DNA of 64,000 nucleotides from Chiloscyllium plagiosum (Eukaryota), in assembly GCF_004010195.1 (NCBI RefSeq), contig NC_057755.1, positions 2,059,803 through 2,123,802 on the forward strand. The letters are read 5' to 3'. Position 1 is the first letter of the stretch. Every line of letters begins with the position of its first letter. Both the position numbers and the translations under genes were made by a program. The notes below the pieces were generated by a model that made no database searches, had not been told where the DNA came from, and worked only from the letters and a program-made list of their open reading frames with translations. Shown one piece after another: positions 3,709 to 47,879 of this stretch.

Positions 3709-3960
3709 AGCTGGAAAAGCACAGCAGTTCAGTCAGCATCTGAGGAGCAGGAAAATCGACGTTTCACAAGTCTTGGGGACGGCTGAGCTGGAAGTTTGGA
3801 ACTGGGGTGAGGTGGGGAAGGGGAAATAAGGAAACTGGTGAAGTCCACATTGATGCCCTAGGGTTGAAGTGTTCCGAGGCAGAAGATGAGGCGTTCTTTC
3901 TCCAGGCGTCAGGTGGTGAGGGAGCGGCGGTGAAGGAGGCCCAGGACCTCCATGACCTCC
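3709..3960 (-). mobile_element. Penelope-like element 3' fragment (GIY-YIG C-terminus plus terminal repeat)
   Basis: Minus strand reads EVLGLLHRRSLTT*RLEKERLIFCLGTLQP*GINVDFTSF, typical of the PLE GIY-YIG tail; adjacent to the gctggaaaagcacagcag repeat. Confidence 0.7.
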
Positions 3961-4453
3961 ATTTCCCAAATGTGCTGTAAAACTGAATTAACAAGAACAG
4001 CCCTGGGATAACAGTGTGCAGTAGATCAGCTCTCAAGAATCTGTACAATATGAGGGATTGAATGACTGAATAACCGCAACAATATGAAGATCAATCACTT
4101 AAAATAATATCAAAAGATATTTGATTGAGACTGGTAGTGAGTGAAATAGTATTGCTATTTGACGACAAGTTGAAAGTCACATTTGTCACCTTATAGGATC
4201 CGATTAATCCAGTCTTTGGGGGAACCAAGTACAGATTTAAATTTCAATGATATCATATCATTAAAATAAGCCTGTTGTCACAATTTGTTTGCTTTTTTTA
4301 AAAAAAAAATGAAGATGTAATCACAGATTCCCAGTGGAAATATTACACAATAGAAAGTATCTGGAACTGTGTCAGCTCCAACTTCGAGAGAATTCTCCAA
4401 TTCCAAGAGATTGACAGCAGCAGGGAGGGAGAGGTTGTTTCACAAACAACACA

Positions 4454-4520
4454 ATGAATCTGACAAGGGAAATGATCGCTAAAGTGTATTACACCATCTT
4501 TGCTATTGTTGGTGTTCCTG
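4454..4520 (+). CDS. GPR139-like orphan class A GPCR, gene A, coding exon 1 (MNLTREMIAKVYYTIFAIVGVP)
   Basis: ATG at 4454; 67 nt ending in CCTG|gtaagt donor (phase 1); same length and homologous to gene B exon 1; encodes the N-terminus and first half of TM1. Confidence 0.85.
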
Positions 4521-7500
4521 GTAAGTCTTCTTACAATTTAGTTTGTATAAATCTCTGCATTACATCAGACTCATTTCAGCTTAATGACTAATAATTATTT
4601 TATTTCCACTCAGTAAGACAAATCCCGATGCCTGATAATAGTGTTCTCACTGTGTTTAAAACAAACAGTTTGTCAATTATGAGGCTCCTCAGTAGTGTCC
4701 AGTATTGTCTGTTTCTCTATACTGCGCAGAATGTCCTGAGGTCACATTGATTGGGTTTGGCTGAGCACGGGCCCAGGCTGGTCGAGAAAGTGTTTAGCAA
4801 AACCACTTTCTCTCTCTGTGGGAGTTCAAAGCCTGCTATTGGTCAGAGGGGTTTTGTAACAACTCACCTCTTAGTGATACCTGGTGTTTTCCATTCCTTG
4901 ATGTGAAGGGATTATGTTGGTGGGTTTTGCACAGGGAGCTCGCTCCAAGTGGGAGCCCAGATTCAGCAGGTGGGCAATGGGTGCATTGCGCAGGTCATTA
5001 TGGAATGATAAGCAAAGGGCAGATGACCTTAATGATCTTGTGTGCTTTCCTTCGTCAGTGGATGCGTGGAGGAATGATTTTGAGGGCAGATAATTATGTT
5101 AATATGAGTTCCAAATGTGTGATAGAAATGTAGATAGTTAACATTTCTAAACTAACTCTGTGGTGTAATTTCTCAACTGAGAAAATAAAATATCTATCTG
5201 TAGTTCATACACACTTGACATTATCCAGAGATAGATTAGATAGTAGTGGACTGTTTATCAAGATTTCCAGGAATCACTCTGAATGAAGATATTCCTGATC
5301 ATGGAGTTGTACTGAGTGGGGAATAACCTCTTATTACTGTTTTCTCATGTTTCTCAGAGCATGTGTCATTGTAGAATTGTACTGAGCATGGATAACCGCT
5401 CAGATGTGAACTTCTGACCAAGTATTGTTGCTTTTCTCGGGTATCTGTAAACACAGCATTGCTGTCAGTGTGTGGCACGAAGGGAGGAATATCCATGACC
5501 TTAATTGTAAATATTATTGGGAATATATTTCAGTGGAGAGAGCTGTATAGAATGTGGGTCAATAACATGAAGGCAACATCCTATTCCCGTGGCAATGTGA
5601 TGCAGTGAGCAGCTTTCTGTAAAATTCTAACTGGGTCTGGGATCTTAGCCAAAGGAGGACAACAAGCCCAGTCTCCAAGTGTTACTGGGAATAGCTGTCA
5701 AAATACAATTACACTGAGTATGAGTTACCAACAAGTCGGAAACAATTCACCACAATGCTCTTGCAAAAGAAGGAGTATCTCTGAGGTTAGAATATAACTC
5801 ACGGGGAACTGAATGAAAGGGAATACTTGAATGTAATTATAATTAGGAACATAATTTGTCTGAAACCATGCGATGCTTCTTTTATGCTACATTCCTCATT
5901 TCACATTTCTGATCTGTTCACTGATTGAGCTATCAACGTAGTTTGGAAATATGAGGGCGTACAAGTGGGAAAATCTTTGGTTGGTACATTTGATACTTAG
6001 TTTGCAGTGTTCTATTGGAGATGAATAGTTGTGACCTCTTGCAAAAAATGAAAATAAGCAAACCACAGTGTGAATTCAATTAGTTGCTTCAAGGACATAC
6101 AACGTTTCCTTAAATAATATTTTTGGGAGCGATTAATCTTCCAGCAATGTTAGGATAGACTCTGGGACATGACTATTCTCAATCATTATCCATATGTTAA
6201 TGAGGATGGATATCACCTCGGCTGGTTACCACTATTTCACCTCTGTGTCTGATTAGATCTATTGTTTATTAGATCTACAATAAACTGTAGATCTATCCAC
6301 AGTTAATGTTACAGTGATCGCTGCTTCACGACGCATGTTCTCCTTGGGAGTATGAGGATTTGATGAGGGCCATGCAAAAATCAGTCATAAGGCAATACAG
6401 AAAAATAAAGAAAATGAGCATGAATACGTTGTTTCATCAAATAACTGACTAGTACCTGCAATATTATGACTGTGGTGAATAATTGTGTTGGACAGCATTA
6501 CAGAGAATTAACAGTACAGCATACAGAACATGTTACATTAAATACAGAAACTGTGAATGAGACATTGTCCTGATTCGGTTATACCCACCATCCATACACA
6601 CTATGTCAATAACAGAGCTCACAAAGTCATTTCCAGAACTGTGAGAGATTTTCTGTTCTTTTTGTGTGATAATGACAAACAGGCTGACTCTGAAGGGTAT
6701 CCAACCTCAATCACACATTGTACAGTTTTGTTCCATCGCCTCTGACATTCCAGCACAACCACATGTTCACTCTAAATTGTGACGAAATCAGGATTGTCTT
6801 GCATTTACAGAAACATTGATTACCTGTTCTTCAATTATATTTGCCTACTTTTATAGTTATATTTTAATGACTGAAAAGTAATATTCAGCTCTTAAGCATA
6901 TTAATTATGAACCCATATTCACAAGAGCAAGCCCTCAACGACCTGAACTCAATAAGATTACAGCTTGTTTCGGTTTCAATTCTGAATGCAGGACAGGATG
7001 GTATGGCTGATGAAGGTCAATAACCTCAGCCATGGGACATCTCTGCAGGAATTCTTCAGGATTGTATCCTCGACCACAGATTAAAAAAATGCCTCATCTC
7101 ATCCATTCCCTCCATAATCATTTCTGAGGTAAAGAGGTTTGCACATGGTCATGCAATATGCAGCACCATTTACAACTCCTTAGATAATGAAGACATCTGT
7201 ATCCATATACAGTGACATAACACCGAATTTTGGCTGACAATTGGAAAGTAACATTACCGTCCCACAAGTACCAGCTAACAACTGTCTCGAAAAATGAGAA
7301 TGTACCAATCTGCCATTAGCTTACTATGTCGTTACCGTCACTGAATGCATGACCTGGGCCAACCATGGACAAGAAAATGAACTTGTCTGGCCATAAAATT
7401 GTTATATATCAGACACCATGAATCCTGTAGCAATACGCTGCCCGCCTCCCTCTCCAATCCATCTCCTACGTCCAGAAAGCCGAGCTCTGGGATGGGATGG

Positions 7501-8711
7501 AATGCTATCTCATGGATCTGGCTGAGTGCAACATTCACAGAACTCCTCATTGGTTGTTTGTAATGCATAATCACCACATTTAGTCCTCACACTCTTCACC
7601 ATCCATGACCAAAAATGGGTACCACCTACAAGATGCAAACTAGGAACTCCCCAATTCTCTTTCAACAGCACCTCATAAACACATGACCCATGGCCAAGGG
7701 CTGCAGGTGATCAGAAACACTGTCACATACAAGTTCACTCTCAAAACAGATTTCATTCCGACTTGGAAATGCAGTATATGGTTGTATCATCACCGTTGCC
7801 GGGTAATATTTCTGGAACTCCCTTCTGAAAACTCTGTGGAATTTCCTGCATCCCTGGCATTACAGATATTCAAAAAGCCAGATATCCAACAGCATCAAAA
7901 TGGCGATTAGAGCTGGGCAATCAACACTGGCCTGGCCAAAGCTTACGTTGCATGAGCACATTTAAAAATGATCACGATTACTATCTCTTCAAGAAAACAT
8001 CTGTGAATCCAAAGGGGGTTTGTGTCGATGGGAATTTCCTGTACAATAAAGAACAGGAGAATCATTCAAAGTGAAAGATTGGATGCTTTGTGCTGAGGTA
8101 TTGCTAAATTCAGAGCGTCTATTATCCCAGAGGACAGTTCGTGTTATGTCTCAATTGGTTGATTCCAATGGGTTACTGAACTCTTGTGAGTATCAAAGCC
8201 AAGAGACAAATCCTTTTCCCTCAGTTGTCTGTGCTGGAACATGGCTTATGTGTTACTGTGATGAATCGAGTGAACGATCTCTTATCTTCAAAAGTGGATC
8301 GATTTTGGGAGTTGTCACAATAAACTTAGATTCGGAATATTCATTTCAATGGGACGCTGTAAAAAGGGGAGGAGTTGTCTATACTGGAGAGTTAGGTATG
8401 TGTGGGGAACTCCATTTCCTGTTATATATTCAATGCATGTTGGTGTCACTGCCTCAACCAGTAATGACCGCCCATCCCTAATTGCCCAGAGAGCACGTAA
8501 GAGTCACCAGTTTGTCATGTGTTTGGAGTCATCTATAGGCCAGTCCATGTTAGGATGAAAGATTATCTTCTCTAAGGGACGTTTCTAATGGAGATGTATT
8601 TTGTTTTCATAACAATTGACAACAGTTTAATGGTCACCATTAAACTATTACGTCCAGATTTTGATTGAACTCAAATTTCATTGTCTGCCAAGCAGACATT
8701 GAGGCGAGAGA

Positions 8712-8865
8712 GTGATGCTGGAAAAGCACAGCAGGTCAGGCAGTATCCGAGGAGCAGGAGAATCGACGTTTCAGGCATCAACCCTTCATCAGTAATGCTG
8801 TACTTTTCTCCCACCACACTCTCGACTCTGATCTTCTGCATTTGCAGTCCTCACTTTCTTCTCTC
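8712..8865. mobile_element. Penelope-derived short element with hammerhead core on the - strand (intron of gene A)
   Basis: Minus strand of 8761-8792 reads CTGATGA-AGGGT-TGAT-GCCT-GAAA-CGTC; flanked by the family consensus gctggaaaagcacagcaggtcaggcagcatccgaggagcagg. Confidence 0.7.
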
Positions 8866-10009
8866 ATCTCCCTAAATGCTTGACATTGGACTGAATCCAC
8901 AAAAAAACAGTCTCTGATACCAAGCAATCATGCAATGTATGGGTCGCCAGAACAAGCTGGGATACAATTCCGGTGACCTCCATAGAGGTTGCTGCTTACA
9001 TTACGGGGATTGCTAGCCCCAACTTCTGCTCTGAATCTGGGAGGGGGATCTCTGTTCACAAGGCGAACTGCAGGAGCCTGGACATCAGACAGGAAGCTTT
9101 GCGTCATCTCATGATTTCCAAACCAGAAATTTGCAATGACCAAAGTTGCATCAATTCAGATTTTGCTTGAGTGGGGGCGGTGGTATACAATCATTAACAT
9201 TGTGGGAGGAGTCTATATCAACTATTAACTATTCTTCTGATTGCAGTGGGTACCCAACTTGGGACATGGTGGTTGGATTCCATGCTGAAAACTTCCATGT
9301 TTCAGCTTGTCGTTACTTTCAATACTGTACAAGTGGGATTGTGGGGGTGGGGTGGAAATGTGAAGGGTGGTAGTTCGATGACCAGTCATTTCTTCATTCA
9401 CGTTGTAGAGAGCATCCATTCCTGAACACTGGAAGGATTCACTGCCCTGTACCATAGTTATACAGTGTGAATGTGCAATCCTGGAAGCAATCTGAGCTTT
9501 GGAGACTCCACAACGAAGTGCAGGAAGTTTGTAATCAATGTCCGTCCTCTGTATCTGCCATTGCTCCTGGGTGATTTTGTTTGGATGTTGTGGTCTTATG
9601 AGCATCTCCAGCCAGTCGGAGTCACCTGCAAATCAGAAGAAATTAATTGTTTAGATCAGAGTGGTGCTGGAAAAGCACAGCAGATCAGGCAGCATCTGAG
9701 GTGCAGGAAAATCGATGATTTGGGCAAAAGCCCTTTATCAGGAATAGAGGCAGGGAGCCTCTGGGAGTCTTTTGTCTAGAAGAAATTAATTACTGACCAT
9801 TTCAAAAATATTGAGAATGTATCATGTTCCTGGGAGTTATTTGATCCTCATGCAATTCCCTACAAATTTAAAAGTGAAAATAATCCATTTGACAGTGAGA
9901 ACTGTAATGGTTCAGGTGGTCTGACATATAAACATCTTTGTGTTAAAACCATCTGGCACGGAGAATATTCGATCAGTTAACTTCAAATCTTTTTTTCTTT
10001 CTCTTGCAG

Positions 10010-10890
10010 TTAGTCTAGCGGCGATTGTATTCTTGTGTGGTGACAAGTGTGGACTTTCGACATGCACCACTCGCTATCTGGTCGCGATGGCTGTATCTGA
10101 TCTACTGTTCATTATTTTTGAGGTCATACTTATTCAGTTTAAATACTATTATTATCCACGGTGTTTCCTGGACATCACTCCTGTTTGTAGTGTAAACTGG
10201 GTCCTGACTGACTTCACAGTTGATTGTTCTGTCTGGTTCACTGTCGCTTTTTCTTTTGATCGATTTGTCGCCATTTGTTTTCATCAGATGAAATCTCAGT
10301 ATTGCACAGAGAAAACTGCGAAGAGAGTTCTGGAAACTATCTGTATTGTTTTTTCTGTAAAGAGCATTCCCAACTATTTTCGAATTGAACCTGGAAGGAT
10401 CATCGACAATGTTCCGTGGTATTGTTACACCAGTTACAATTACTTTAATGATCATTTGTGGGTGACTTATAGATATCTTGAATCATTTATAACACCACTT
10501 CTTCCATTCATTTTGATTCTCTTTCTCAATGTTCTGACAGTCAGACACATCTTTGAGGCCAATAAGGCGCGTAAGGGACTGAGGGGTCAGACAAAAACAG
10601 GGAATGACCCAGAGATAGTGAGCAGAAATAAATCTGTGACTTTACTGTTTGCTATATCTGCCAGCTTCATACTGGTCTGGTTGGTGTATATTATATATTT
10701 ATATGGTATTGGATATTACGTGGATGATTTTTATCTCTTTGAAGAAGCTGCATATATGCTGCGGAACCTCAGTTGCTGCACCAATGCAGTGATTTATGTG
10801 GTGACACAGAAAAGTTTCAGAGACCAGTTAAAGAATGCAGTGAAATATCCAGTTATAAAAATAATTCAATTGGTGAATAAATCCAAGTAA
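10010..10890 (+). CDS. GPR139-like orphan class A GPCR, gene A, coding exon 2 (spliced product 315 aa)
   Basis: Polypyrimidine tract + ttgcag acceptor ending 10009, in phase with exon 1; intact 7TM frame with YLVAMAVSDL (TM2), FDRFVAIC (DRY-like), TPLLPF (TM5), CCTNAVIY (TM7), KSFR helix 8; stop at 10888-10890. Confidence 0.92.
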
Positions 10891-11644
10891 CTGAGTGACA
10901 ACATTCGCTGCAGCAGCTAATGGAATGAGGAGTCTACATGAAAAATGGCCCGAAAGGAGAAGGAGGAGCAGCAGCATGAAAACACTCCTTTTCTCAGGGG
11001 CAATGACTTACTCCATCTGAGGAACATCATGAGATACCCTACAGGAGTGAAGCCAGAGTAAAGGAGAAACCGTTACAAAGGAGCAACAGTCAGGAGAAAG
11101 CTGAACAACAAAAGCATAACCAAAAGTGGAATTATGTGTGCCTTCCAAAAAAGTCATCCCTAGTATTCAGTTCACAGCAAGTGACAAGGATACAATAAAC
11201 AGACCTGGAGGAAAGAATCAGCCTTCATTGCAGGGTGAACAGCAATGACAGGCTCCTGTCCACTCTTCCTCGTGGAATACTCTGGTCTGTATAAAAGTAA
11301 AAAAAAGAGAAGTTTGACCTCCATCTGGAGTTTCATTCAGCTGCCCCCGGTTTAATGCTAATATCACTCCCTTTCTTTATTTGTTTTTATTTCCACCAAT
11401 CAGCTGCTGTGTTGATGGAGAACCCAAGGCCCAATCAGAGGTCTCGGGGGTAGTTGGGAACTGAAGCTCGGGAATGGTATGTGGGGGATGAGCCGATATC
11501 CTCCGTGCTTCTATGAAAAGGTTGTGTGGCTCTCACTGACTCCACCGAACTCAAGGGGAATTGACTCTGAATGAAGCCTGTTCGTTTGTGGCTTCATAAT
11601 GGAGCTTGAGATTAGTTCAATCCACATCACCTCCAAGATGGCTG

Positions 11645-11995
11645 TTTCCATCTGTCAACCAGCTCCTAAACACACCCATTGCCTCACAGTTCATCATCGC
11701 GGAAACAGTCATTCATTCCATTGTGTCCATGTGTAACACAGCTCCTAAACCCATCTCCCTGCCTCACAGCTCATCATCGGGGAAACAGTCATTCATTCCA
11801 ATGTTTACATCTGTAAACCAGATCCTAAACCAAGCCCACTGTCTCACAGCTTATCATCGGGTAAGCAGTCATTCAGTCCGTTGCCTCCATCTGTAACACA
11901 GCTCCTAAACCCATCCCCTGCCTCACAGCTCATCAGCAGGGAAACTGTCATTCATTCCATTGTTTCCATATGTAACACAGATCCTAAACCAATTC
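11645..11995. repeat. ~79-bp tandem minisatellite, about 4.5 units
   Basis: cctaaac...gcctcacagctcatcatcggggaaacagtcattcattcca recurs with cctaaac at ~11665, 11745, 11824, 11904 and 11982. Confidence 0.9.
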
Positions 11996-11999
11996 CCGT

Positions 12000-13130
12000 G
12001 CCAATTTTGGTCTCCTTCCTATCGGAAAGACGTTGTGAAACTTGAAAGGGTTCAGAAAAGATTTACAAGGATGTCACCAGGGTTGGAGGGTTTGAGTTGA
12101 AAAATGTGGTGCTGGAAAAAACACAGCAAGCCATGTAGCATCCGAGGAGCAGGAGAATCGACTTTTCGGTCAGAAGCCCTTCTTGAAGCCCGAAACGTCG
12201 ATTTTCCTGCTCCTCGGATGCTCTCTAGCCTGCTGTGTTTTTCCAGCACCACATTGTTCAACTCTGATACTCCAGCATCTGCAGTCCTCACTTTCTCCTG
12301 GTTGATCTTAACCTCCTGCGAATCCTCTTGCAAGAATGCCTACCTTGAAGAAGCTCTCCTCCTCCCTCTACAAGGACCTCAGTGAGTCCCTCTCTCAATG
12401 CACACCCCCTCCAGGTCACCTCCTTTGTCCCGAATTTCTTCAGCCATGTCCTGAAACAGACTCGCTACCACAGCCACAACTCCTTCCTCAGCACCTGCCT
12501 ATGGAACCGACTGACCCTGAATGGACTCTTTTCAAAAGATTCCTGAAGAAGGACTTATGCCCGAAACGTCAATTCACTTGCTCCTCGGATGCTGCCTGGC
12601 CTGCTGTGTTTTTCCAGCACCACATTTTTCAATTCTGGTACTCCAACATCTGCATTCTCCCTTTCTCCTTGGAGGATTGAGCTATAGGGAGAGGCTGAAC
12701 AGGCTGGAGCTGTTTTCCCTGAAGCGCCGGAGGCTGAGTGATGACCTTACAGAGGTTTACAAAACCATGAGGGGCATAGTTAGGATAAATAGATAGAGTC
12801 TTTTCCCTGGGGTGGAATAGTCCGGAACTAGAGGACAGAGGTTTAGGGTGAGAGGGGAAAGGTATCAAAGAGACCAAGGGGCAACTTTTTCAAACAGAGG
12901 GTGGTATGTGTATGGAATGAGCTGCCAGAGGAAATGGTGGAGGCGAGTACAATCACAACATTTAAGAGGAATTTGGATCGGTGTATAAATGGGAAGTGTT
13001 TGGAGGGATATGGACTGGGTGCTGGCAGTTGGGACGAATTCGGTTGGGACATCTGGTCGGCATGGACGTGTTGGACCGAAGAGTCTGTTGCCATGCTGTA
13101 CACCTCGATGACTCTATGAATCTATGATCA
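12000..13130 (+). mobile_element. CR1 LINE 3' fragment interrupted by a Penelope-derived element (~12100-12670)
   Basis: QFWSP.YRKDV..LERVQKRFTRM at 12000-12095 resumes as GLSYRERLNRLELFSL..RRL..DL.EVYK at ~12670; ttggagg.tt.gag is duplicated on both sides of the insert. Confidence 0.85.
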
Positions 13131-13369: not shown

Positions 13370-14300
13370 ATAATCAAAGAGATTTTCACCACGGAAACAA
13401 GCTCGTTGGTCCAACTCAGTCCATGCCGATCAGATATCCTGTCCTAATGAAGTCTCTTTTGCTAGCATTTGTCCCATATCCCTTTAAATCCTTCATGTTC
13501 ATATACCCATCCAGGTGTATTTTAAATGTTGGAATTGTATCACCTTCCACCACTTTCTCTGGTAGCTCATTCCATACACACACTACCCTCTGTGTGAAAA
13601 CGTTGCCTGGTAGATCCCTTTTAAATTTTTCCCCTACCCTAAACCTATGCCCTCTAGTTATGGTCTTCCTCCACCTCAGAGTAATTACCTTGCATATTCA
13701 CCCTATCTATACCCCTCATGATTTTCTAAACCTCTAAAAGGTCACCCTTCAGCCTCCGACATTCCAGGGAAAACAGCCCCAGCCTATTCAGCCTCTCCTT
13801 ATAGCTCAAATCTCCCAACCATGGCAACACACTTAGAAGTCTTTTCTGAACCCTTTCAAGTTTCACAATAGTCTTCTGATAGGAAGGAGATTAGAATTGC
13901 AAGAAATATCCCAAATATGCCCTAACTAATGTCCTGTACAGACGCAACATGATCTCCCAACTTCAGTACTCAGACCAATAAAGGAAAGCAGACCAAATAT
14001 CTTCTTTACTATCCTATTTACCTGCAACTCCTCCTTCTAGGAACTGTGAACCTGCACTCCAAGGTGTCTTTGTTCAGCAACACTCCCGAGAACCTCACCA
14101 TTAAGTGTATAATTCCTGCTTTGATTTGCTTTTCTAAAATGCAGCACCTTGCATTTATCGAAATTAAATTCCACTCCTCAGTCTATTGGCACACCGAATT
14201 AAGATTCCATTGTAATCTGAGGTAACCTTCTTTGCTGTCCACTACAACTCTAAGTTTTGTGTAATCTGCAAACTTACTAATTATAGCTCCAAAGTTCAGG
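13370..14300 (-). mobile_element. CR1 LINE 3' fragment (RT C-terminus and UTR)
   Basis: Reverse complement of the CR1 ORF2 3' region seen in other copies (ccctctgtgtgaaaacgttgcc, cctttcaagtttcacaa). Confidence 0.8.
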
Positions 14301-14679
14301 CTTATTCATGATGAAGGGCTTTTGCATGGAACGTCGATTCTCCAGCTCCTCGGATGCTGCCTGACCTGTTGTGTTTTACACTATCACACTCAACTCCTAT
14401 GTTCACATCTAAATCATGCAAGGCCAGAAAGAAATAGCAGGGAAGAATGCCAGAAACAACATTAACTCTGACAATGGGAACAATCTTGCGTGCCTGAGGT
14501 GTGTTCGCTTCTGGACCCCAACTCTCAGTTCTTCCGATTACCCAGCTCCCTCTCTGAATTAAGATACACCTTAAAATTTACCTCCTCGACCACGTTATTG
14601 CCAAATGACCTAATATCACCTTCTGTGGGTCAGTGTAAGTTGATATGATGTACGTCTTTTTAAGTACATTTTTGAGAGA

Positions 14680-17230: not shown

Positions 17231-17259
17231 AGGTCGGCACTTGTAGTTGGACGGTTCCT

Positions 17260-17625
17260 AGGCGTCGTGTTGCCTCATCTTCCGCCTCAGAACCCTCCAA
17301 CCACAAGGGATGAATGCAGATTTCTCCAACTTCCTCTTTCCCCCCCCACCTTTTCTCAGCCTCAGCACCGCCTTCTTGACCTGCAATCTTCTTCCCGACC
17401 ACTCCGCCCCCAACCCCCTGTCCGGCCTATCACCCTCACCTCAACCTCCTTCCACCTATCGCATTCCCAACGCCCCTCCCCCAAGTCCCTTCTCCCTTCC
17501 TTTTATCTTATCCTGATTGGTACACGTTCCTCATTACTGAAGAAGGGCTTATGCCCAAAACATCGATTCTCCTGCTCCTTTGATGCTGCCTGACCTGCTG
17601 CGCTTTTCCAGCAACACATTTTTAA
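17260..17625 (+). mobile_element. Penelope-like element 3' end (GIY-YIG tail, C-rich spacer, hammerhead-like terminal repeat)
   Basis: LIFRLRTLQPQGMNADFSNF, then ctgaagaagggcttatgcccaaaacatcg (decayed hammerhead core). Confidence 0.7.
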
Positions 17626-18639
17626 GCTCCATTGTTCCCCAGCCTTCTCTTACTAACAGTCACAAATAATAGCACCACGTCAGCCACCCTCCAGTCTCTG
17701 CTGCCCACCCATGGTTGTTGATAGGAATATTTCATCGAGTCAGAGAGTCAGCGAGCCAGAGAGAAGTACAGCATGGGAACAGACTCTTCGGTCCAACTCG
17801 TCCATGCCAACCAGATATCGCAACCTATTCTCGTCCCATTTGCCACCATTGGCCGAGCAATCTCTTCCCTCGCTTCCTCACAGCCCGACATTTTTGAAGA
17901 TCAGAGAATTGTTTTCTGACGGATTGTATGGAGTGAAGTCCACAAACAGCATGGCCTCACATCCACTCCCAAAGTACATCACGGCGACCACGGACAATGA
18001 TACATTGGAGGGGCTAGCAAACAACGAACCCTGGAGAATCCTTTCAGAAGAATAACACTCCCAGAAGCAATGATCCCATGACTTATATTTGTCTCTGTGG
18101 GAATTGACCAGCCATGATTCTCCCGTGGTATGTGAGAGCATGACTTGGAGCATGTCCGAATCCGTGAGGAAAGGCATCATCAAACCTATCGACAAGTAGA
18201 AGGGGGAAGGAGAAGGGAATGACGCCACTGTATCTATATCACTTACCCAGGGAACATTAGACTAACCCCACTGTGTCTCTGTCACTGACCCAGTCACTAT
18301 TGCCCTGCAGTGTCCCTCTCTCACTGTGGACAGGAAACTGGTGGTGGGTTTAACTTGAGGGGGGTCACCACAGGGTTTGAAAGGCAGGACGTTCGGGTGA
18401 CCTCGGCTGGTATGGGGTAACACAGCCCCTACTGTTAGCTCTGTATCACAAAACAGCCATCCAGCTAACCGAGAATCAGAGAATCTCTGCAATGCAGGTG
18501 GAGTCCACTTGGACCATTGAGTCTGCACTGCTCCTCCGAGGATCATCCACCTAAACCCACTTCCCTACCCTGTCCCTTTAACCTGCATTTCCCACGGCCA
18601 ACCCACACCAGCCCACACCTCCCTGGACGCTAAGGATAG

Positions 18640-22407: not shown

Positions 22408-23599
22408 CGCGCAGCCCCTTGCGCCGTTGAGTCTTTTAGGTCATTGTGAGACTGTCAGAAATAACAGAATGAACAGGGACAGGCGCAAATTGTCCCAGAA
22501 ACAAAAACATGCTGCGTGTGCAGTGGCGCGGGGAGGCGAGCAGAGGGTGACATTGAATTACTTTAAACACAAGAGGGACACAGCATTATATCACTTTAGT
22601 TACAAGAAAAACAGAGAGACAGACAGAAGGAGATTGAAGTTGAGAGTGTGTTGCTGGAAAAGCACAGCAGGTCAGGCAGCATCCGAGGAGCAGGAAAATC
22701 AATGAAGGGTTCTGATCTCCAGCATCTGCAGACCTCACTGTCTCCTAGAAGGAGGTTGAACCACATTTCAATGGATACAGCCCCCAAAACAACTGAAAGC
22801 CTATTGCACAGAGACACAGGTACACAGACAGACACTATCACACACAAGCAGTTAGACAGATACAGAGACAGAAACACAGACAACGTCCGCTAATATCGTC
22901 TGTGTAGAGGTTGATCTTTTTAATTTGTGTTCATTTTTTTCAATAAACTGCTGTCAATTTGAACAATAGCCCTGTGTAATCACTTGTCCATTTTGTTGAA
23001 ATGTATTGAAGCATTTAAAGAAGAAATGTTTAAAAGATTTGGCATAGTCATAGGACACCAGGATATAGTCCAACAGGTTTATTTAAAATCACAAGCTTTC
23101 AGAGCACTGCTCCTTTTTCAGGTCGGGGAAGTCGATCGATGAGATGTGGGATTGATCAACCCGCCCTGGAGGACTGGGCGAACGATAGGCTTGGGCATTA
23201 ATCAAACCCCCTGGAGGACTGGGCGATCGATGTGATGGGGACTTGATCCAGCCCCATGGAGGACTGGTCACTCGAATGCTCCTTCTGCTGCTGCTCTGGG
23301 TCTCAGAGCAGTTCCTCACAACAAAAGATTCTCAAGCTGTCAGCTTCATCCGCTGAAGGTGGGATAGTCAGAGACATAAATTTTTCACTTTTTGATTCAT
23401 TCAGACATCCCTCCGGGACAAACTGTGTCCCATTGCAGACAGGGATAGACCCACACCCACATACTCACATATGGAAACTCACATCAACATGACCATCAGC
23501 ATTTTATCATTTTAAATACCAGAAGGACTGACGGGGTAAAGGGGTTTAACCACATCCAAATGTATACAGCCCCAAAAACAACAGAGACCCCATTGGACA

Positions 23600-24460
23600 G
23601 AGACACAGACATAGAGAGACACACACACTGATATATACTAATACACACAAAAAAGATCATCAGACCATGAAACAGATGCAGGCACACACACACGTGCAGA
23701 CTGACACACACATACACACTGATGCACACATATAGACTGGCACAAACAGAGACACACATATACAGTCCGACACATGGAGAAACGCATCTACAGATTGACA
23801 TACACATATATCTAGACGCACACACGCAGAGACCAACTCAGACCAAACACACATATATACAGACCAATATGCACATACAGAGACAGGAACACATTAAGAC
23901 ATAGGCACATGCACTCATAAACACAAATACATGAATATATATATGTGCAGGGATACACAGACAGGCAGATTCAGAAACACACATACAGACATATATATAT
24001 ATATATAGACACACAGAAACACACATCTGCATATGCACAAGTGCACACAGAAACATATATATACTGATCAAGACACGCAGACAGAAACACACAGAAACGT
24101 ACATACAAGGACAAAGGCACCCATAGAAGAAAGTGAGGACTGCAGATGCTGGAGATCAGAGTTAAGAGTGTGGTGCTGGAAAAGCACAGCAGGTCAGGCA
24201 GCTAATGAGGAGCAGAGAATCGACATTTCAGGTATAATCCCTTCATCAGGAATTATTCCTGATGAAAGGCTTATGCCTGAAATGTCGATTCTCCTGCTCG
24301 TCGGACGTTGCCTGACGTGCTATGCTTTCCAGCACTACACTCCTGACTATGAGACATACAGATACAGAGAGACAGTTATACACAGACAGACACAAAGACA
24401 CGCATATATGCAGGCACACACATAAATTCAGAAACACACACACTGACATGCATAGGACAA
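23600..24460. repeat. CA/TA-rich low-complexity tract containing a palindromic Penelope-derived element (24128-24348)
   Basis: Degenerate (CA)n/(TA)n; inverted arms centred on tcaggaattattcctga at ~24247-24262. Confidence 0.85.
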
Positions 24461-27199: not shown

Positions 27200-28140
27200 T
27201 ATTACCCGACATGGTGGGATGTGACCAGTTGGATCCCATAAGGATCTGTGTTCAAATTATTCAAACATTTATTAACAACTTGGATAATGGCAGAGAAGTC
27301 GTATAGAGTCATACAGCCCGGAGACCAGATATTTTGGTCCAATCAGACCATGCTAATCATAATCCCAAATTAAATTAGTCCCACATGCAGAATCCAAATT
27401 TGATCATAATTCAATGTTAGGGAGTGTTTTAGACAGTGGAGGTGATCGCATAGAGTTACAAAGCGTTATTAACAGAGTAGATTAATTCACAAAGCTATGG
27501 CAGCAAGTAGGAGAAAGTGAATACTGCAGATGCTGGAAGTCAGAGTCGAGAGTGTGGTGCTGGAAAAGCATAGGAGCTCAGGCAGCATCCGAGGAGCATG
27601 GAAGTTGACATTTCGGGAGTAAGCCCTTCATCATGAATCCTGCTCCTCGGATGCTGCCTGACCTGTTGTGCTTTTCCAGCACCACAGTATCGACTATGGC
27701 AGCAAGGGTAAGGTTATCCACTTTAGACAGAAACAGTATGGATCAGGAGACTGCCCGGATGTTATGAAGTTAAATAGAGAGATATCCAAAGACAATTGGG
27801 GGTTCAGTGCATCTTTCTTTAATTTTTCACAAACAGCTGCAGAAAATGGCAAAAGTGGCTGTTGGAACGCTGGCCTTTATATCTAGAGGACTTGAGTACA
27901 AGGATGGAGAAGCTATGCTGAAGTTCGACAAGACCCTGGTTAGACCCCACTTGTGAACAGATATAGGCGCCACACCTTAGTCAGGATATACAGTACTGAC
28001 GTTTGGGGAGTTCAACGCACGTGCACAGGAATGATAGCTGGTGGTCGGGCATTAAGTTATGAAAGAGAATTATATAAATTAGGCCGACTTTCTCTCAAAT
28101 TTAGAAGATGAATAGGTGATTAGATTGAAGGCTGCAAAAT
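27200..28140 (+). mobile_element. Degenerate CR1 RT fragment with an inserted Penelope-derived element (27508-27695)
   Basis: gtgaccagttggatcccataaggatctgtg (SGVPQGSVL-like) and ctggttagaccccac (LVRPH); gctatggcagcaag is duplicated around the insert. Confidence 0.6.
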
Positions 28141-30000: not shown

Positions 30001-30404
30001 GTAAATTTCCGTGGAACAGTGAACTCCATGAGGAAGAGTGGGAAAGAGCCTGTCGTTGCTGTTCCCACTCTGGGCCTGCAGTGAACAATGATCCTTTCCT
30101 CCAGGTCATTAGTTTGTATCTGGTTCACCCACTGAGAATGGATTGCTTGGATTTATTTTTTGAGGGGCAGATCTAAGTCCTCTTTCGGTTATGCTTTTGT
30201 TGTTCATGTTTCTGCATACTGTTTCTCCTTGCTAACAGCACTTTACACTGGCTTTACTCCTCCAGCCTCTTTCATGTTGTTCCTCAGATGGAGTCATTCC
30301 TTGCCAATGTGAAAAGGAGTGTGATCACGTTGCTGCTCCTCCTTCTCCTTTCAGGCCATTCCTCACATAGACTACTCGTTCTAATGTCTCATGTCGCCGC
30401 TCAG

Positions 30405-31291: not shown

Positions 31292-33115
31292 CTGTTGGAG
31301 AGAAAAAGGAAAGTAAACAGACTTGAATTTATTCATCAACCATTCTCCATACTTGAGCTGTGATTGTAAATAATGGCACAAAGAGAGTAGTTTTTCATGT
31401 CAGATGAAGCCTAAAGAATTTGAACCACAGCAACAAGCTCTCTCCAAATAAATCATTTGTACTTACAAATGACATAGGGAACATCATGAGCAAAATATGT
31501 CTCGCAGAAACACAGTCATGTCTTCAATTGTTTTGGGGGGATCAGCAGAGGTTTATTTTACCTGTTTTATAGGTTACTCAGACTTCCCTTAAGACCACTG
31601 CATCCACATAAGACATCTGGGATCAACAAAACCAAGAACGGGAGATACCTGACAGACACTGATTGCAATATCTGTATTTGATTTCGGAGTCTCAAAGCAC
31701 AGATTGCTCAAGCATTGTATATCCATACCATATAAACGACACATCAAATCACTCCACACTGTACAGGAATGGATGAACAAATAATCGAGAGAGTCCCTTT
31801 CTCGTGTGCAGCATTTAACATCGTGACATTCTGAACTATTCAGGAGTGAATACAACCACTATGTCTCAGGTTGGATTCCCATTACAATCACAAGAACTTC
31901 AACATTTGGCACGGACTCGCCCATCTGACCAAGACTGTGCACCACAGCCTCCACCAAAACAAAAGCTGAATCAATGCTGCATTGTAACTCTTTGTTTGAG
32001 AAATCAGACTCTCTATCTCGGATTAAGCAAAGTTTTCTGCCTGCACACAGTCAAGCGCCTCTGCTAGGCTCTTTCCTTGTAAACAGAGATCACCCTCCAA
32101 GGTTCGGAGCGCTCTGGTGCCTGGGATCCCCATACTTTACCCAGGAATTCTCCATGGAGATCACTGGAATTGTACCACAGTTTGGCATGAGAGAGTAATA
32201 AATACAAATCTGAATTGATAGCCAAAGACCAAACAACAATCCCAAATAAAGGCACGTGGTAACACCTTCACATAATCCATTATTGTTCAGGGAACATCAA
32301 AGGATAACAGCAACAAAGGGAAAGGTAGGAAACATCCTGTTGGGCAAAGTTGTTTGATCCTGCGTGGGAGAGCTGCTGACACTACACTCCAGATCTCAGT
32401 AGTTGTCTCTTTAGACTCTGCGCAAAGCACTGTGCAAATGACACGGGGAATACGGCTTTTTCACAATCAAATAATTCAATATTAAGCATCATAATTGGAG
32501 CCCTGTGCTCAACAATCCTACCAGTGACCTGTCCTCACAATTATCATGTCTCCACACATCCACTGACTGACAAATACACACAAGATTGTTGACAGCATTT
32601 GTGATGACCCTCACGTATCACTCCATAAGAACATGGTCATCCCACCCATTGTCCATCTGTTTTACCTCGGCTCCAATCTTGCCTGAGCAAGATCCACGCA
32701 AAAATCCCTTCACATCAAGGAATGGGAAGCACGAGGTTTCACGAAGGTTACAAAACCCATCTGACCAATAGCAGGCTTTGGACTCCAACAGAAAGAGAGA
32801 GTGTGTGTGAGAGAGAGAGTGGTCGTATTAAACACTTTCTCGACTAGCCAGGGCCGGTGCTCAGCCAAACCCCATCAGTGTGGCCTCAGGGCAAACCCAT
32901 TCTGCACAGTATAGAGGAACAGACAATGCTGCACATTACCGATGAATCTCCTAACTGACAAACTGTTCATTTTAAACTCAGTAATTGAGGACACGACCAT
33001 ATACCCATCAGTAATTGCCTTGCTAAATGGAAATAAAATAATTATCTGTCATACATTGGAGATAATTACGATTACATGCAGAGCTTTATCCAAGTTAAGC
33101 TGTTCCAGGACTTAC

Positions 33116-33182
33116 CAGGAACACCAATAATGGTGAGGATGGTGTCGTACACCTTTTCGACCCTTTCCCTTAGAAGATGCAT
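33116..33182 (-). CDS. GPR139-like GPCR gene B, coding exon 1 (MHLLRERVEKVYDTILTIIGVP)
   Basis: ATG at 33182, 67 nt, CCTG|gtaagt donor, phase 1 matching exon 2. Confidence 0.85.
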
Positions 33183-34549
33183 TTTATCAAATAACCTCTC
33201 TCTTCCTGCTGCTGGAACTCTGTCGGTACTGGAGAATTCTCTCAGAATTGGTTATGATACAGCTTGAGAGACATTATTTATATTGTCTGCTGGTATCTCT
33301 ATTGGGAAACTGACTAATCGTTCTATTCTTTTTTATGATTTTGAACAAACAGGTTACGTCAACAGGTTTATTTTAATAATTGCTGTACAAGACTGTGCGT
33401 GAATACCCCGAAGACTGGATTAGTCTGATCCTATTAGTGTTCAAATGTGGATTGCAACTTGTTTTCAAACAACAATACTTACATTATTTCACATGAATAT
33501 CGAAATGTCTTTTGATATTCTTTTCAGTAATGAACTTTATTTTGCTGAGATTGTTCAGCCATTCAATACCTCATTTTGTAGATCCCTTTGAGAGCTGTTG
33601 TACTGCCACTGTTATAGCTCTGTATTTCTTGCTAATTTAGTTTTACAAGTTACTTGGGATATCTTATTTGTGAGTGAGCGCTCTGATACAGCGCCTGAAG
33701 CTGATACTGACCATAACAATAGCTGGAATTTCTGCTAAGTAATATTTTTCTCAAAACAAATATGAATAAATTGAAGCTAATTCAGAACCTTAACTTCAGA
33801 ATTCTAGAGCAACTGTAGCACAGAACGGAAGCAACGCTTTGGCCCATCATGCCAAAACTACAATCACTCTACATCAACCCCACTTTCCAGCAATTGGCCC
33901 ATAGCCTTAAATGTCATAACATTTCAAATGCTCATCCACATTTTAAAGGTTGAGAGGTTTCCCATCTCAACGCCCCTTCTGGACAGGGCACGGCCAGCCC
34001 CTACCATCCTCTCCGGGAGAAGAATTTTTCTCATGTCCCCTCGAGACAACTTGCCTTTCACTTGAAAATGAAGCCGCCTTGTTATTGACCCTTCGACTGA
34101 GGGGAAACAGCAGCACTGTTTGAGCTTCCTCGTGTCCTGCCATTCACGGAGTACAGCCTTGTCTTGTTTACTCTGGCAAAATGCATCACCACACATTTAT
34201 CAGGATTACACTTCAACTGCCATTGATCTGACAAATCTGTCGACTTCTATCTCTAACTAAGGATGATTTTCCTCACGTTCTACCACGTGGACAATATTTG
34301 TGACATCCGTAAATGTACTTACAATCCCCAATTTGCCTTCCTGTACACCCACACACACCCGTTTACACCCACCTACACGCACACCCACCCACACCCACCC
34401 CGACACACATTCATACTCACAAAAAAATCCACACACAAATATACACACACTCACACTGCCACACACAGACATTCACTCATTGTTATCATTTATGAATATT
34501 ATAATCAGTAAAGGACCCAGCACTGGTCCTTGTGGTATTCCACTGGACA

Positions 34550-42245: not shown

Positions 42246-42899
42246 GACCAAATAATAGCGTTGAAAATTATACAGCTGTTAAAGAATCACATATGACGAC
42301 TGATGTAAGGCAATGTACATTAGTGCACTAATCCACATACACAAACCTTGGTTAATCCAAGCATTAGTTGTTATTTTATTACTCCAATCACTTTGAAACA
42401 TGTGACTGTGTTTGTGATTTATTTCATATTGTGGCTGGACGGCCCACTCAATGTAATGAATTTATGATGAAAGATAATGAGCTTATCATGGAGTTACAAA
42501 AGCTGGACAATGATTAAAGCATGCTGGGAAATGGGAACCAGCTTTGAACAGAGTGACTGCGCTGATCAACATGCTGCAGAATGCAGACAAGCTGCAACTA
42601 CCAACAGGAGAAAATGATGAGTGCAGATGCTGAAGGGTCAGAGTCTAAACGTGTGGCACTGAAAGCATAGCAGGTCAGGCAGCATCCAAGGAGCAGGAAA
42701 ATAAGTTCTTCATCACACTTTGCACTTTATGACACTGCAGCTTGTCACAGACAGTCTGCAAACAACTTGGTAGCTGCAGATCCGAAAGTATCCACCCAGA
42801 TTAGGGTTTGAATGTGACAACAGAATGTTATCCCCAGGATAATCGGAACCATCAAGGTGTGCACCAGACATGGAAGCACCTCCCAACCTGATTTAGAGG

Positions 42900-43615: not shown

Positions 43616-44445
43616 GCATTCCCACAAGATGCAATATCACAAGACGTCTCGTACGGACTAAACAGATGAGCTCAGACTCCCAGACGGTCATTCCATTGCT
43701 CACCACTGGAGGGAATTACGAGATACAAACATACGAACCGAGATGATTCAACATGGCCATGCCGCTGGAGACAGAGGATTGAAAACCTCTGTGGGCTGCC
43801 TACTAACAAACCCATTCACTCACTAATCCAGGAGATGTAACGGATCCTGGCAGCCACTAAAGACAGGGTCCTACTGTTTCTGATAGTCCAATCTCACACG
43901 GATCTCATCTGTCTTCCAACTCGTCTTTCTGTGGACACTGATGGCATTAACCAGGTTACTGTTCTTCGGTGACCCTCACTTCTTTAATTTATATGTAAAC
44001 CACTGGTCTCTTGACACCGTTCACATTGGTACTTCACGTTAAATTGATTTTCGTACTTGATGGTCCACTCAGCAGACTGTCTTCATCGTCACTTGTCTTT
44101 GAAAACATATAATGGTCGGGTCATTGAAATAGTCCTTACCGCGACCACTAGAAAACAAAGTTAGAGCCGACCTGCCTCTGAAAACCCAGCTGAACATGCC
44201 ACCTGGGTTTCACATTAACAAGGTTTCGGGTTGATATTGTTTTCTTGAAAACAAAATTGGGAAGAGGGTCAGTATGCATACGATAGAGTACTGTGTCGAA
44301 ACTAGTCAGCTATTAAACAAAGATTACAACAGAATCAACCTTAATCTCTACCTCGTATAGCCATGACTGCACGAAACACAATCATGATATACCTCATCAG
44401 GATCATTATCGTCATTGGGAATCAGGCACAGGAGACATCAAATTG

Positions 44446-44652
44446 GAGAACTTGAGGACTGCAGATGCTGGAGATCAAAGCTGAAAAATGTGTTGCTGGA
44501 AAAACGCAGCAGGTCAGGCAGCATCCAAGGAGCAGGAGAATCTACGTTTCCGGCATTAGCCTGAAGAATTGCTTATGCTCGAAACGTCGATTCTCCTGCT
44601 CCTTGGATGCTGCCTGACCTGCTGCGCTTTTTCAGCAACACATTTTTCAGCT
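44446..44652. mobile_element. Palindromic Penelope-derived element with ~12-bp target-site duplication
   Basis: Inverted arms; gg(a/t)gacatcaaa on both sides (44431-44442 and 44653-44664). Confidence 0.8.
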
Positions 44653-44681
44653 GGTGACATCAAACAAACCTGGGGACACAT

Positions 44682-45080
44682 CCCCAGGATATTTATAGTT
44701 TGGCCAACTGGATGTTCCCGGGTTATTTAAGGTTCAGTCCACTGGATGCTCCAGGTTATTTATGGTTTGGCTCACTGGATGCCCCATGATATTTATGGTT
44801 GGCCCACTGAATGTCCCCAGGATATTTATGGTTAGCCCACTGAATGTCCTCAGGATACTTATGGTTTGGCCCACTGGATGTTTCCAGGATATTTAAGGTT
44901 TTGCTCACTGGATGTCCCCAGGATATTTATGGTTGGCCCACTGAATGTCGCCAGGATATTTATGGTTTGGCTCACAGGATGTCCGCAGGATATTTATGGT
45001 TGGCCCACTGAATGTTCCCAGGATATTTATGGTTTGGCCCACTGGATGTCCCCTGTTTATTTATGGTTTGTCCCACTGGA
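44682..45080. repeat. 33-34-bp minisatellite, about 12 units (ccccaggatatttatggtttggcccactggatgt)
   Basis: Direct inspection of tandem units. Confidence 0.95.
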
Positions 45081-45787
45081 AGCTAGTGAATGTGGGTACA
45101 TCCCAATAGGAGTATAATGTTTGGATGCGCCAATCAGCGGGTAGCATATGAAAATACAAGTAGAAGCTCAGATGATTGTTAACTGAGCGTAAAAATTGAC
45201 GGGTGATTTTTGGGGATTGTTGTCATTTTGAGTATGTTGGCCAAGTCAGGAAGTTGGTTTGCAAACATTTCAGAATGGAAGAAATTACTAGAATCAGCAA
45301 CCGGAAGGTAGGAATGGAACCAAATAAACTCCACAAGACACAGTACAGCAGCGCTTCACAGGAGGCTCCAAAGCACAGAGGATTTAACATGGACAGGGAA
45401 CGAAACATCTGCAAACCAACTTCCCCGCTCGGCCAACATACCCACAACTATAACAACCAGCAGCCGAGATACAAACCTTCACGTAAACCCTGAGTTGGTG
45501 GGGATTCTCAAAATTTGGGTGCCCTGAGATAAAACAACAGAACCGGGCGCTGTGCAGCATATCCGGACAATGGATGATAGAACAGTTGAGGGAAATCTCA
45601 ATCAGGTGAGGCAGGTTCAGGTTCCATCCTGGATCAACTACGAACACAGGCACTATTCACGAAGGCCTATGCTTCTAATATGACAACACCCTAATGTCCA
45701 CAGTAGAGAGCAACTAAGGCTCATTGGGACCGATTTGGAACATCTATTTCAGGGAAAGAAACACCCCAAATTATCACACTGCCAACA

Positions 45788-45912
45788 TTCCTGATGAAGG
45801 GCTGATGCCTGAAACGTCGACTCTCCTGCTTCTCAGATGCTGCCTGACCTGCTATTCCTGCACCACACTTTTCGACTCGGCCTCTCCAGTGTCTGAAGTT
45901 CTCACTTTCTCC
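45788..45912 (+). mobile_element. Penelope-derived short element with intact minimal hammerhead core
   Basis: CTGATGA (45791-45797)-AGGGC-TGAT-GCCT-GAAA (45811-45814)-C-GTC (45816-45818). Confidence 0.7.
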
Positions 45913-47879
45913 CGGACTGCCTCCTGTGACAACTGACCAAGGTTTGAGTCAATGATGAGTGGTAAAGGACTCCTGGGAAGCATTAAGGATGGTATTAGGA
46001 CTCCAAATAATGACGTACGATACAATTGGAGTAAGGATGTTCGAAGTAGAAAACATAGGCACTATTCACGAGGACCTAAGAATACGATATGATGACACCC
46101 TACCGTGCACAGTAGTGAAGGACAGGAGGCTCACAGGCACCACTTTGGATGAAAGTCAACAAACTAACACTATTGTACCATACCCGTACCCAATTTACTG
46201 AAATGAACATGCACTGTGTGGGTTCAGGACAAACACCAACCTGAATTGCATCATGGAGGCTTATAACCTGGACACCAACATAACCCAGGTACCGACTGGG
46301 GAAGGGCAGTATGGTCTCACAACCTCACTTGGCCATTATCTGTATTGGACAGCCCAATATAATATCAACAACAGCACCCTCAGCATTAGGGTCCACATGC
46401 CTGCCAGCATCGGCCGAGTCCAGCTCATTAATAGACATAAAAGGGAGAAGGGGCTATTCAATGTGAGTGAGGAACTCCGGCAGACTCTGGGGGAATATAT
46501 GGAGAAGTACGACACTGTCCTCCAGCCCCTGCTGGCGGAGTTACGCCAGCGTCGAGCTGGGTTTGTCACAGCCCAGAGAACCCTCCCCAAGGAGAAAATA
46601 GCAGGCCCATGATGCCAAACAGGGAATAAAGGAGATTAAAGTAACGACTTTGTGGGAGGATTTCTAGCAGTGCAGCTCCAACATAGTGATCCATCATTGG
46701 ATCCGCCTTGTCTCATATCTGACTGCGTTGTTAATTCTGGTTACCCTAGTATATCACACCATTAAATTTATCTGGTGGGAACAAGCTGTCAAACAAACTA
46801 AATGTGCAGTTTTCAATCCCTGAGCTTATTGAAGCATTGTAAATATTTGTGAAAAGGGCGAAGGAATCTTAGTTATCATGGTGTGTGAGTAACGTTGGTT
46901 CATTTTTTTTTAATAATTCTGAAGGACCTTTTATTATGTGACTTCATAACGTTTTGCCATTATAAATTTCGCTCTGAACCGTTTTATATTTGCCAATTTC
47001 TTCAATGTCATTATTTATTTTAATTTACTACACTGCCTGTAAGAGTACATTTATTTAAGTAGGTATTATGCTTTACTTGAGCTTGAATGATTGTTTGCTC
47101 ACTACACAGAGATTGCAGACATTGGTTTTTTGTTAGGGTTTAGATTAGTGTGGTACTCGAAAATCACAGCAGGTCAGGCAGCATCCGAGGAGCAGGAAAG
47201 TCAACGTTTCGGGCAAAAGCCCTTTATCAGCCCTTCCAACATCTGCAGTTCTCACTTTTGCCTTCGTCTTTTATGAGGTGATCCAACACCTTTCCTGTTC
47301 AGGAACAAGTGGCCACACAGGCTGCTCAAAATAATTGATGTTTGTCGGAATTTGGTAAAATTGGACAAGGAGTAAAGGATGCTGGGAAATGGAAGCCAGC
47401 CTTGACAAAGTGACTGTGTCAATTAACATGCTGCAGAATGCAGACAGACTGCAGCTACTCACAGACAGTTTCCAAACATCCTGGTAGCTGCAGACCCTAC
47501 AATACTATCCCTAATTTGGGTTTGAATGTGACAATAGAAGTGTGTACCAGACACGGAAGCACCTCGCAGCCTTATTTGTAGGATGGTACGTGTGACCAGC
47601 ACCTCCAGTAATGAACATCTAAGGGCCATCAGTTCTGGGAAACATAGCTGCCTGAAATTCTTGTACCTTCTCCAGTTCCCCCACAATAAAAGTGCACGAC
47701 AGGTTCATGAAGTCTGAGAAAGTCACAGAGCACAGAAGGGGCTCTTTCATCCAACCTTGTCTCGAGCCTGCAATCAGTTACTTGATAACGTACAGAGAAT
47801 GTTTAAGGTTGTTTAATTTCAGCTGTTAGTGCTTTGCTTTAAATTTCCGTTCTCTAAATGAACCCACAAACTTGTTCAA

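Follow-up and report, generated by a model that had tools for sequence, protein, structure and literature searches.

Short hammerhead-bearing repeats in Chiloscyllium plagiosum as probable terminal-repeat insertion products of Penelope-like retrotransposons

A stretch of 64,000 nucleotides from Chiloscyllium plagiosum (the window; contig NC_057755.1 of assembly GCF_004010195.1, positions 2,059,803 to 2,123,802, forward strand) was analysed for a dispersed family of short repeats that carry a hammerhead ribozyme motif next to remnants of Penelope-like elements (PLEs). An initial annotation, made from the letters alone, had listed 14 copies of this family. All 14 places belong to one repeat family in a blastn search made with a single copy (E at most 1e-10 at each), and an nhmmer profile of 15 arms, a model made from these very copies, recovered the same places and two weak ones; in the reversed window it gave one match (E 0.2). 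The weak matches, 3509-3557 and 61824-61903, belong to another family and are excluded from every count. The dispersed family and its high density are thus borne out, and all listed positions match; only the number of copies changes, as those at 12100 and 12536 are parts of one insertion (12093-12668) within one duplication. This leaves 13 insertions per 64 kb with 18 alignable arms, covering 2693 bp or 4.2% of the window. The repeat unit is about 97 nt long, and a tail of about 33 nt extends it to about 130 nt; it is numbered from the A four bases 5′ of hammerhead C3. The arms are 83-98% identical to their majority sequence. Matches to 55,046 and 60,758 contigs in two DNA runs suggest, by contig counts, a very large family in the shark group.

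In two of the 13 insertions (1 and 6) the terminal part of a reading frame is retained upstream of the arm. These remnants, 3825-3959 (−) and 17274-17351 (+), match a whale-shark protein with reverse transcriptase (RT) and GIY-YIG domains at 60% and 65% (tblastn E 1e-9 and 2e-5), so that both GIY-YIG tails described in the initial annotation are real. The protein query was a 41-residue piece (3831-3953, with X at two stops), which matched 11 proteins in phmmer, ten of them alike short predictions; the remaining one (P0009) was set aside as an unrelated repeat protein. Eight of the short predictions, when looked up, proved to be whale-shark gene models and led to longer whale-shark and zebra-shark proteins. 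Judged by these matches by themselves, the host would be a fish of carpet-shark kind. The best-matching whale-shark protein contains GIY-YIG above the Pfam cut-off and an RT motif; the two short window peptides themselves gave no meaningful Pfam match. The other end of the open reading frame (ORF) was found with a PLE profile made from 78 of 96 full-length relatives, whose best match in the window is 12376-12555 in insertion 4 (profile positions 9-68 of 902, E 5e-5; reversed control 0.97). This N-terminal stub was identified by the profile only, as a word-based protein search with it returned none of 19 candidates. Since the unit lies both 3′ of the ORF end and 5′ of the ORF N-terminus, it is read here as a pseudo-long terminal repeat (pseudo-LTR, pLTR). 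Judged by sequence, each arm is such a terminal repeat of a Penelope-like element, in agreement with the Penelope origin first proposed. The closest whale-shark protein carries a CX4CxxC linker, given as a mark of the Neptune and Nematis clades (PMC8557442; here and below, statements from cited papers refer to the sections drawn on). The parent elements are probably endonuclease-positive PLEs of Neptune/Nematis type, a clade assignment taken from a 60-65% identical homologue, with the linker outside the window.

The insertions are as follows (UTR, untranslated region; LINE, long interspersed nuclear element).

Insertion 1, 3690..3961 (−): GIY-YIG C-terminal remnant 3825-3959, shortened 3′ UTR and pLTR arm without the 5′ half of the hammerhead; 8-bp duplication 3682/3962
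Insertion 2, 8703..8862 (−): intronic; the arm, whose core 8765-8792 (−) is intact, is joined to an inverted arm that has collapsed and bears the tail
Insertion 3, 9649..9777 (−): intronic solo arm with broken core, reaching about 30 nt past unit position 1; 14/14 duplication 9635/9778; not in the paralogous intron
Insertion 4, 12093..12668 (+): inverted arm 12093-12186 (−); direct arm and tail to 12300; PLE ORF N-terminus 12376-12555; second direct arm and tail 12539-12668; duplication 12083/12669; interrupts a LINE-like repeat
Insertion 5, 14299..14394 (+): solo arm with broken core, no tail; weak 10/12 duplication 14287/14394
Insertion 6, 17260..17629 (+): GIY-YIG C-terminal remnant 17274-17351, 3′ UTR and pLTR arm from 17533 without tail, its core broken at G12; duplication looked for and not found
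Insertion 7, 22639..22746 (−): inverted pair in collapsed form with the tail on its + arm; flanked by a 13/14 duplication (22625/22747); empty site 23497-23608
Insertion 8, 24125..24347 (no single strand): inverted pair, both arms from unit position 1 (24253 − and 24255 +); tail on the − arm; both palindromes broken
Insertion 9, 27509..27693 (no single strand): inverted pair, tail on the − arm; 13/13 duplication 27495/27694
Insertion 10, 42606..42714 (−): arm with tail; hammerhead partly deleted; no duplication found
Insertion 11, 44443..44652 (no single strand): inverted pair whose arms are 97% identical to each other, the − arm with the tail; flanked by an 11/12 duplication (44431/44653)
Insertion 12, 45784..45912 (+): solo arm and tail; core (45791-45818), helix II and palindrome intact along with three pairs of helix I, as in no other arm; 6-bp duplication, weak
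Insertion 13, 47141..47266 (−): inverted pair in collapsed form, with the core broken at G8 and the tail on its + arm

Inverted pairs, absent from the initial annotation, make up seven of the 13 insertions. All seven are head-to-head, four complete and three collapsed, and in 7/7 the tail is present on exactly one arm. Candidate target-site duplications of 6-14 bp flank eight of the 13 insertions. Four are strong (14/14 at 9649, 13/14 at 22639, 13/13 at 27509 and 11/12 at 44443), the lowest of their scores being reached by 0.3% of 2000 random site pairs, and four are weaker: those at 12093, 14299 and 45784 (random 1-4%) and 8/8 at 3690, which came from a looser search only. Empty sites were found for three insertions. 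The flanks of insertion 4, once joined, restore the interrupted repeat, of which the window holds six uninterrupted copies; for insertion 7 there is one empty site, and insertion 3 is missing from the paralogous intron. For 27509, 44443 and 14299 the window contains no empty site. Hence the copies are separate insertions with target duplications and with a short and a long 3′ end (the tail), often arranged as inverted pairs.

This anatomy resembles published insertion units of endonuclease-positive PLEs, described as a pair of direct pLTRs with an inverted pLTR adjacent to them, one of these pLTRs bearing a 31-bp tail, and with duplications of 8-10 bp (Arkhipova et al. 2013, PMC3846280), an arrangement later called typical (Craig et al. 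2021, PMC8557442). Insertion 4 shows the whole published layout with most of the ORF missing, and six further insertions correspond to its inverted-pair core. The tail of about 33 nt on one arm (30-40 bp there) and the size of the duplications are alike, whereas the window copies differ in their extreme shortness and density.

Over the arms, the majority letters contain the CUGANGA and GAAA boxes, the NUH site, an extra base after A9, the G10.1-C11.1 pair and the ACGU palindrome. The minimal type I hammerhead with an ACGU palindrome, as initially annotated, is therefore confirmed for the majority sequence. The motif then given, CTGANGA-GGGC(N4)GCCY-GAAA-CGTC, has the boxes right, but overlooks one extra A between CTGANGA and helix II, and of its four example cores only two are intact: 45791-45818 (+) and 8765-8792 (−) are complete, whereas 12543 has an A-C mismatch in helix II and at 24259 ATGT replaces the ACGT palindrome. 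Compared with the minimal hammerheads in the pLTRs of metazoan PLEs (Cervera and De la Pena 2014, PMC4209133), the core boxes, the extra base between 9 and 10.1 (listed there among the hallmarks), G10.1-C11.1 and the palindrome 15.2-16.2 are alike. Alike as well are the location in the pLTR, the predominance of single copies tied to truncated elements and the occurrence of some opposite-strand pairs within 100-700 bp. Differences concern helix II, with 4 bp in the window family versus 7-8 in Schistosoma families, and helix I, in which at most 3/4 positions are paired (three pairs and a mismatch) versus the 4-5 bp expected for minimal hammerheads and the 2 bp reported for Drosophila virilis. 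The sections of PMC4209133 drawn on name no shark; supplementary figures there and in PMC11167929, and the tables of a bioRxiv preprint (10.64898/2026.07.22.740005), may name shark families.

The two complete cores stand among 11 core-spanning arms, and 1.4-1.9 intact cores of 11 are expected if the majority sequence is mutated at flank rates. The initial annotation had asked whether core nucleotides are more conserved than flanks, and would count a core that mutates at the pace of its flanks as evidence against it; within the limits of a small sample, this is what is observed. The core is not significantly better kept than matched flank sites: non-CpG substitutions are 6/128 in the core versus 50/656 at positions 37-75 (p 0.35), or versus 32/586 in the flank without four diagnostic sites (p 0.83). 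For the 4 pairs of helix II, a single two-sided change was seen over the 11 arms (covariation term +0.2). An Rfam search up to E 10 gave 11 matches, none of them to a hammerhead, and the two best (mir-2756 and MIR533), both below the gathering score, correspond to inverted pairs. Complete inverted pairs fold as hairpins of about −97 to −148 kcal/mol (four loci), in which the motif is buried. For the best copy, the predicted dimeric hammerhead fold reaches −2.7 kcal/mol, versus −20.9 kcal/mol for an alternative dimer that pairs by a longer palindrome spanning the cut site, in a nearest-neighbour model that ignores core contacts and Mg. In this copy a perfect palindrome of 6 bases (45814-45819) covers the cut site and competes with the 4-base helix III palindrome in predicted dimers. 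A dimer in cis of the 12184 and 12539 cores is not in the minimum-energy fold. The hammerhead is best described as inherited at the 5′ edge of the unit and decaying like the flank, with no sign in its sequence of upkeep by the host.

Half of the arms (9/18) align from unit position 1; two of these run on upstream and seven stop there or within a few bases. The remaining nine start at 4, 5, 10, 14, 16, 25, 33, 34 and 38. Loose contig ends lie at 17537 and 17542 (552 and 546, and 498 and 500 contigs in two DNA runs), and their consensus finishes in the first bases of the unit, preceded by mixed AT-rich letters (agreement 0.33-0.36); none lies at the cut site among the 18 ends listed, with 780 further ones beyond these. 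In insertion 4 the second direct arm meets ORF sequence exactly at unit position 1. The initiator consensus YYANWYY fits position 1 in both arms extending past it, with one mismatch at the last position in one arm. In published work the Penelope start site was located in the pLTR (PMC8557442). Family reads occur in poly(A) RNA in both directions (2846 reads, one run), and the RNA depth over the hammerhead is 1275, versus 103 immediately upstream; subfamilies that differ in their upstream sequence inflate this step. No pile-up of RNA read ends was listed, the GUC site included, the library being poly(A) single-cell RNA and a weak test. At 17469-17542, 21 RNA reads skip 72 bases including the unit start, without splice-type ends, probably reflecting one deleted copy elsewhere. 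As position 1 begins with ATT, the same three letters as the preferred cut of the anole endonuclease (PMC11167929), the ends at position 1 may alternatively have a cause at the DNA level. Taken together with the internal start of reverse transcription in the anole element, the 5′ ends at position 1 would be accounted for by run-off copying to an RNA 5′ end at this position.

We consider it probable, with good confidence, that the repeats represent dead-on-arrival products of the insertion of endonuclease-positive Penelope-like retrotransposons and consist of the pLTR alone. By analogy with Poseidon of Anolis carolinensis (PAc), the element protein would nick both DNA strands, and reverse transcription would begin at an internal position of the RNA, at a distance of about 95 or 130 nt from the 5′ end. 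With a single-unit RNA as template, the enzyme would soon run off this end and leave a stub of 100-130 bp, and fold-back or the joining of two cDNAs would give head-to-head pairs. The ribozyme would serve the active parent elements, as a dimer and probably assisted by protein, and not host loci. In PAc, reverse transcription starts internally at two sites that define the tail, hammerhead activity is protein-dependent, cleavage is dispensable for insertion and no RNA reads ended at the cut site (Frangieh et al. 2024, PMC11167929). Common to both systems is a hammerhead upstream, by about 110 nt, of two internal sites at which the RT starts, and PAc cuts and extends both strands. They differ in that the PAc ORF begins in helix II, whereas the ORF match begins about 75 nt after the tail here, and in that PAc belongs to the Penelope/Poseidon clade and was tested experimentally.

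Several observations weigh against this explanation. The window contains no full-length parent element, and a target duplication was looked for and not found at five of the 13 insertions (8703, 17260, 24125, 42606 and 47141). Compared with the whole flank (positions 37-95, 103/968, including subfamily-variable sites), the core (6/128) is better kept (p 0.04, small sample), so weak selection on the core may exist. The figures for G12 speak for decay: G12, which lies in a CpG, is kept in 67% (RNA) and in 70% and 67% (DNA) of family reads or contigs, versus 71% (RNA) and 74% and 75% (DNA) for a flank CpG and 96-98% for a non-CpG site, but these shares (sequences matched to 17240-17660 at 80% likeness; 40 of 136 rows listed) are biased to the decayed letter, which the reference copy carries. 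A template RNA that starts four bases before the core, and not at the cut site, is suggested by DNA ends only. The arms at 22704 and 42702, which align only from positions 33-34 beside the cut site, may derive from a cleaved template, although both look like deletions. Finally, the subfamily tree considered below rests on 16 of the 18 arms, in short rows, and has no starred branch.

The rival that survives best, although we regard it as improbable, is a self-propagating non-autonomous family, like a short interspersed nuclear element (SINE) or a retrozyme, close to the non-autonomous, retrozyme-like family of the initial annotation: short units transcribed at their own loci would be re-copied in trans by a Penelope protein, and the hammerhead would trim the RNA. 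Short units do far outnumber ORF ends, with an RNA depth of 51 over the ORF end versus 2251 over the unit (one run) and an about 20-fold difference in contig depth, a poor measure. Insertion 4 would fit as an internally shortened unit of pLTR, ORF stub and pLTR, and non-autonomous PLE derivatives have been described (PMC8557442; bioRxiv 10.64898/2026.07.22.740005). Nevertheless, a distinct family is not seen among the 16 arms of the tree. There the short arms group with ORF-linked arms in two subfamilies and share their diagnostic sites; 44443-44652 is 94-95% identical to the ORF-linked 17533 arm, versus a between-locus mean of 82%. Moreover, the 5′ ends lie before the core instead of at the cut site, and the lack of a listed read-end pile-up points the same way, as far as poly(A) single-cell reads allow. 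The term retrozyme-like is not supported either. By definition, retrozymes form head-to-tail arrays in which two or more consecutive units have a complete hammerhead, and give rise to circular RNA (PMC7229834; bioRxiv 10.64898/2026.07.22.740005). Among 39 tandem-repeat rows in the window there is no tandem array of the unit; the units are dispersed, solo or inverted, the only direct pair (12184 and 12539) is split by ORF sequence, and neither of its cores is complete. No go-back joint indicative of circular RNA was seen among 15 of 31 RNA joints listed, in a poly(A) library ill suited to it. The family resembles the non-LTR retrozymes of metazoans (Cervera and De la Pena 2020, PMC7229834; Li et al. 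2026, bioRxiv 10.64898/2026.07.22.740005) in its short, non-coding units with a type I hammerhead related to PLE pLTRs, and dispersed monomers occur in retrozyme families too; in this window neither head-to-tail arrays nor, as far as the poly(A) library allows, circular RNA was seen.

Very improbable in our view is a use of some copies by the host as ribozymes against passing transcripts, for instance within gene A or antisense to it. Coding exon 1 of this gene lies at 4454-4520 (+) with a phase-1 donor and exon 2 at 9961-10890, giving a predicted intron at 4521-9960; exon 1 with its donor and the acceptor at 9960 are common to a paralogue at 33116 (−), the splice structure being deduced from sequence. 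The long frames of both genes are rhodopsin-family receptors (Pfam). Insertions 2 (8703) and 3 (9649) lie in this intron with their cores on the − strand, antisense to the gene on the + strand, just as initially annotated; gene A pre-mRNA therefore carries no hammerhead. The two complete cores and the presence of family sequence in poly(A) RNA in both directions would suit host use. On the other side, two intact cores equal the neutral expectation, no same-strand intact partner lies near either of them, the predicted dimer energies and a helix I of at most three pairs are unfavourable, and the 9649 insertion is absent from the paralogous intron. As the complete hairpins bury the motif as well, the claim that the family scatters candidate self-cleaving motifs is not supported in a functional sense. 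For PLE hammerheads, published activity was nil as monomers and low as dimers (PMC4209133), and in frog one of nine dimers was active (bioRxiv 10.64898/2026.07.22.740005). A reading as a MITE-like family (miniature inverted-repeat transposable elements), with the long inverted arms as terminal inverted repeats, would suit the four hairpin loci and the short, numerous, duplication-flanked copies, but is hardly tenable given unequal arms with the tail on one side, duplications that vary from 6 to 14 bp, many solo copies and a unit continuous with an RT and GIY-YIG ORF, which contradicts it.

Further features of the window were noted. The regions 3976-11287 (+) and 30014-33647 (−) hold inverted paralogous two-exon G protein-coupled receptor (GPCR) genes, 66-77% identical in blocks, long non-coding stretches included; about 600 bp of intron after exon 1 are kept at about 70%. 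A third GPCR fragment was recognised by eye at 55364-55669 (+), and an open stretch of 136 codons at 46202-46612 (+) has no meaningful Pfam match. Minisatellites of 80, 34 and 69 bp lie at 11643-12002, 44681-45080 and 143-543, the first two adjoining insertions 4 and 11 and unrelated to the unit. A second Penelope-like family is present at 61816-62375 (−), with a GIY-YIG C-terminal remnant at 62144-62375 (tblastn E 9e-7), a 3′ UTR and, near 61875-61907, a hammerhead-like motif that is decayed and differs in helix II; 3493-3555 (+) holds a related arm. An isolated, weak stretch of 20-24 residues at 1049-1126 (−) resembles a PLE reverse-transcriptase motif (E 0.015 and 0.06). In the zebra-shark gene model P0014, the C-terminus past the GIY-YIG end resembles a translated hammerhead region, which hints at the same motif downstream of the ORF. 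Tails such as 12270-12300 end in a pyrimidine run, in some copies followed by AG, directly before the ORF start, like a splice acceptor; introns in the PLE 5′ UTR are known (PMC8557442).

The family is thus a further case of a published PLE class, whose layout and minimal hammerhead were already known; the role of hammerheads in endonuclease-positive PLEs has been described as unclear (PMC8557442). For annotation it matters that pLTR stubs, about 4% of the window, can pass for microRNA hairpins (as in the sub-threshold Rfam matches), MITEs or ribozymes. Dimeric Penelope hammerheads are reportedly the subject of a paper by Lunse et al. A more far-reaching proposal, which we regard as possible but rather unlikely, is that the mRNA starts at the A four bases before the core with the ribozyme at its 5′ end, that the stubs are run-off copies, and that palindrome-paired RNAs on a dimeric protein come together with their 5′ ends, so that the ribozyme would act as a switch for RNA dimerisation and leader removal. 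All seven inverted junctions lie in or beside the hammerhead, which would be explained if two RNA 5′ ends were brought together in this way. If true, such a switch would give a direct handle on the role of these hammerheads. The very numerous short copies, with their fixed ends, naturally record where template RNAs end, and this record could be used to test what the hammerhead does.

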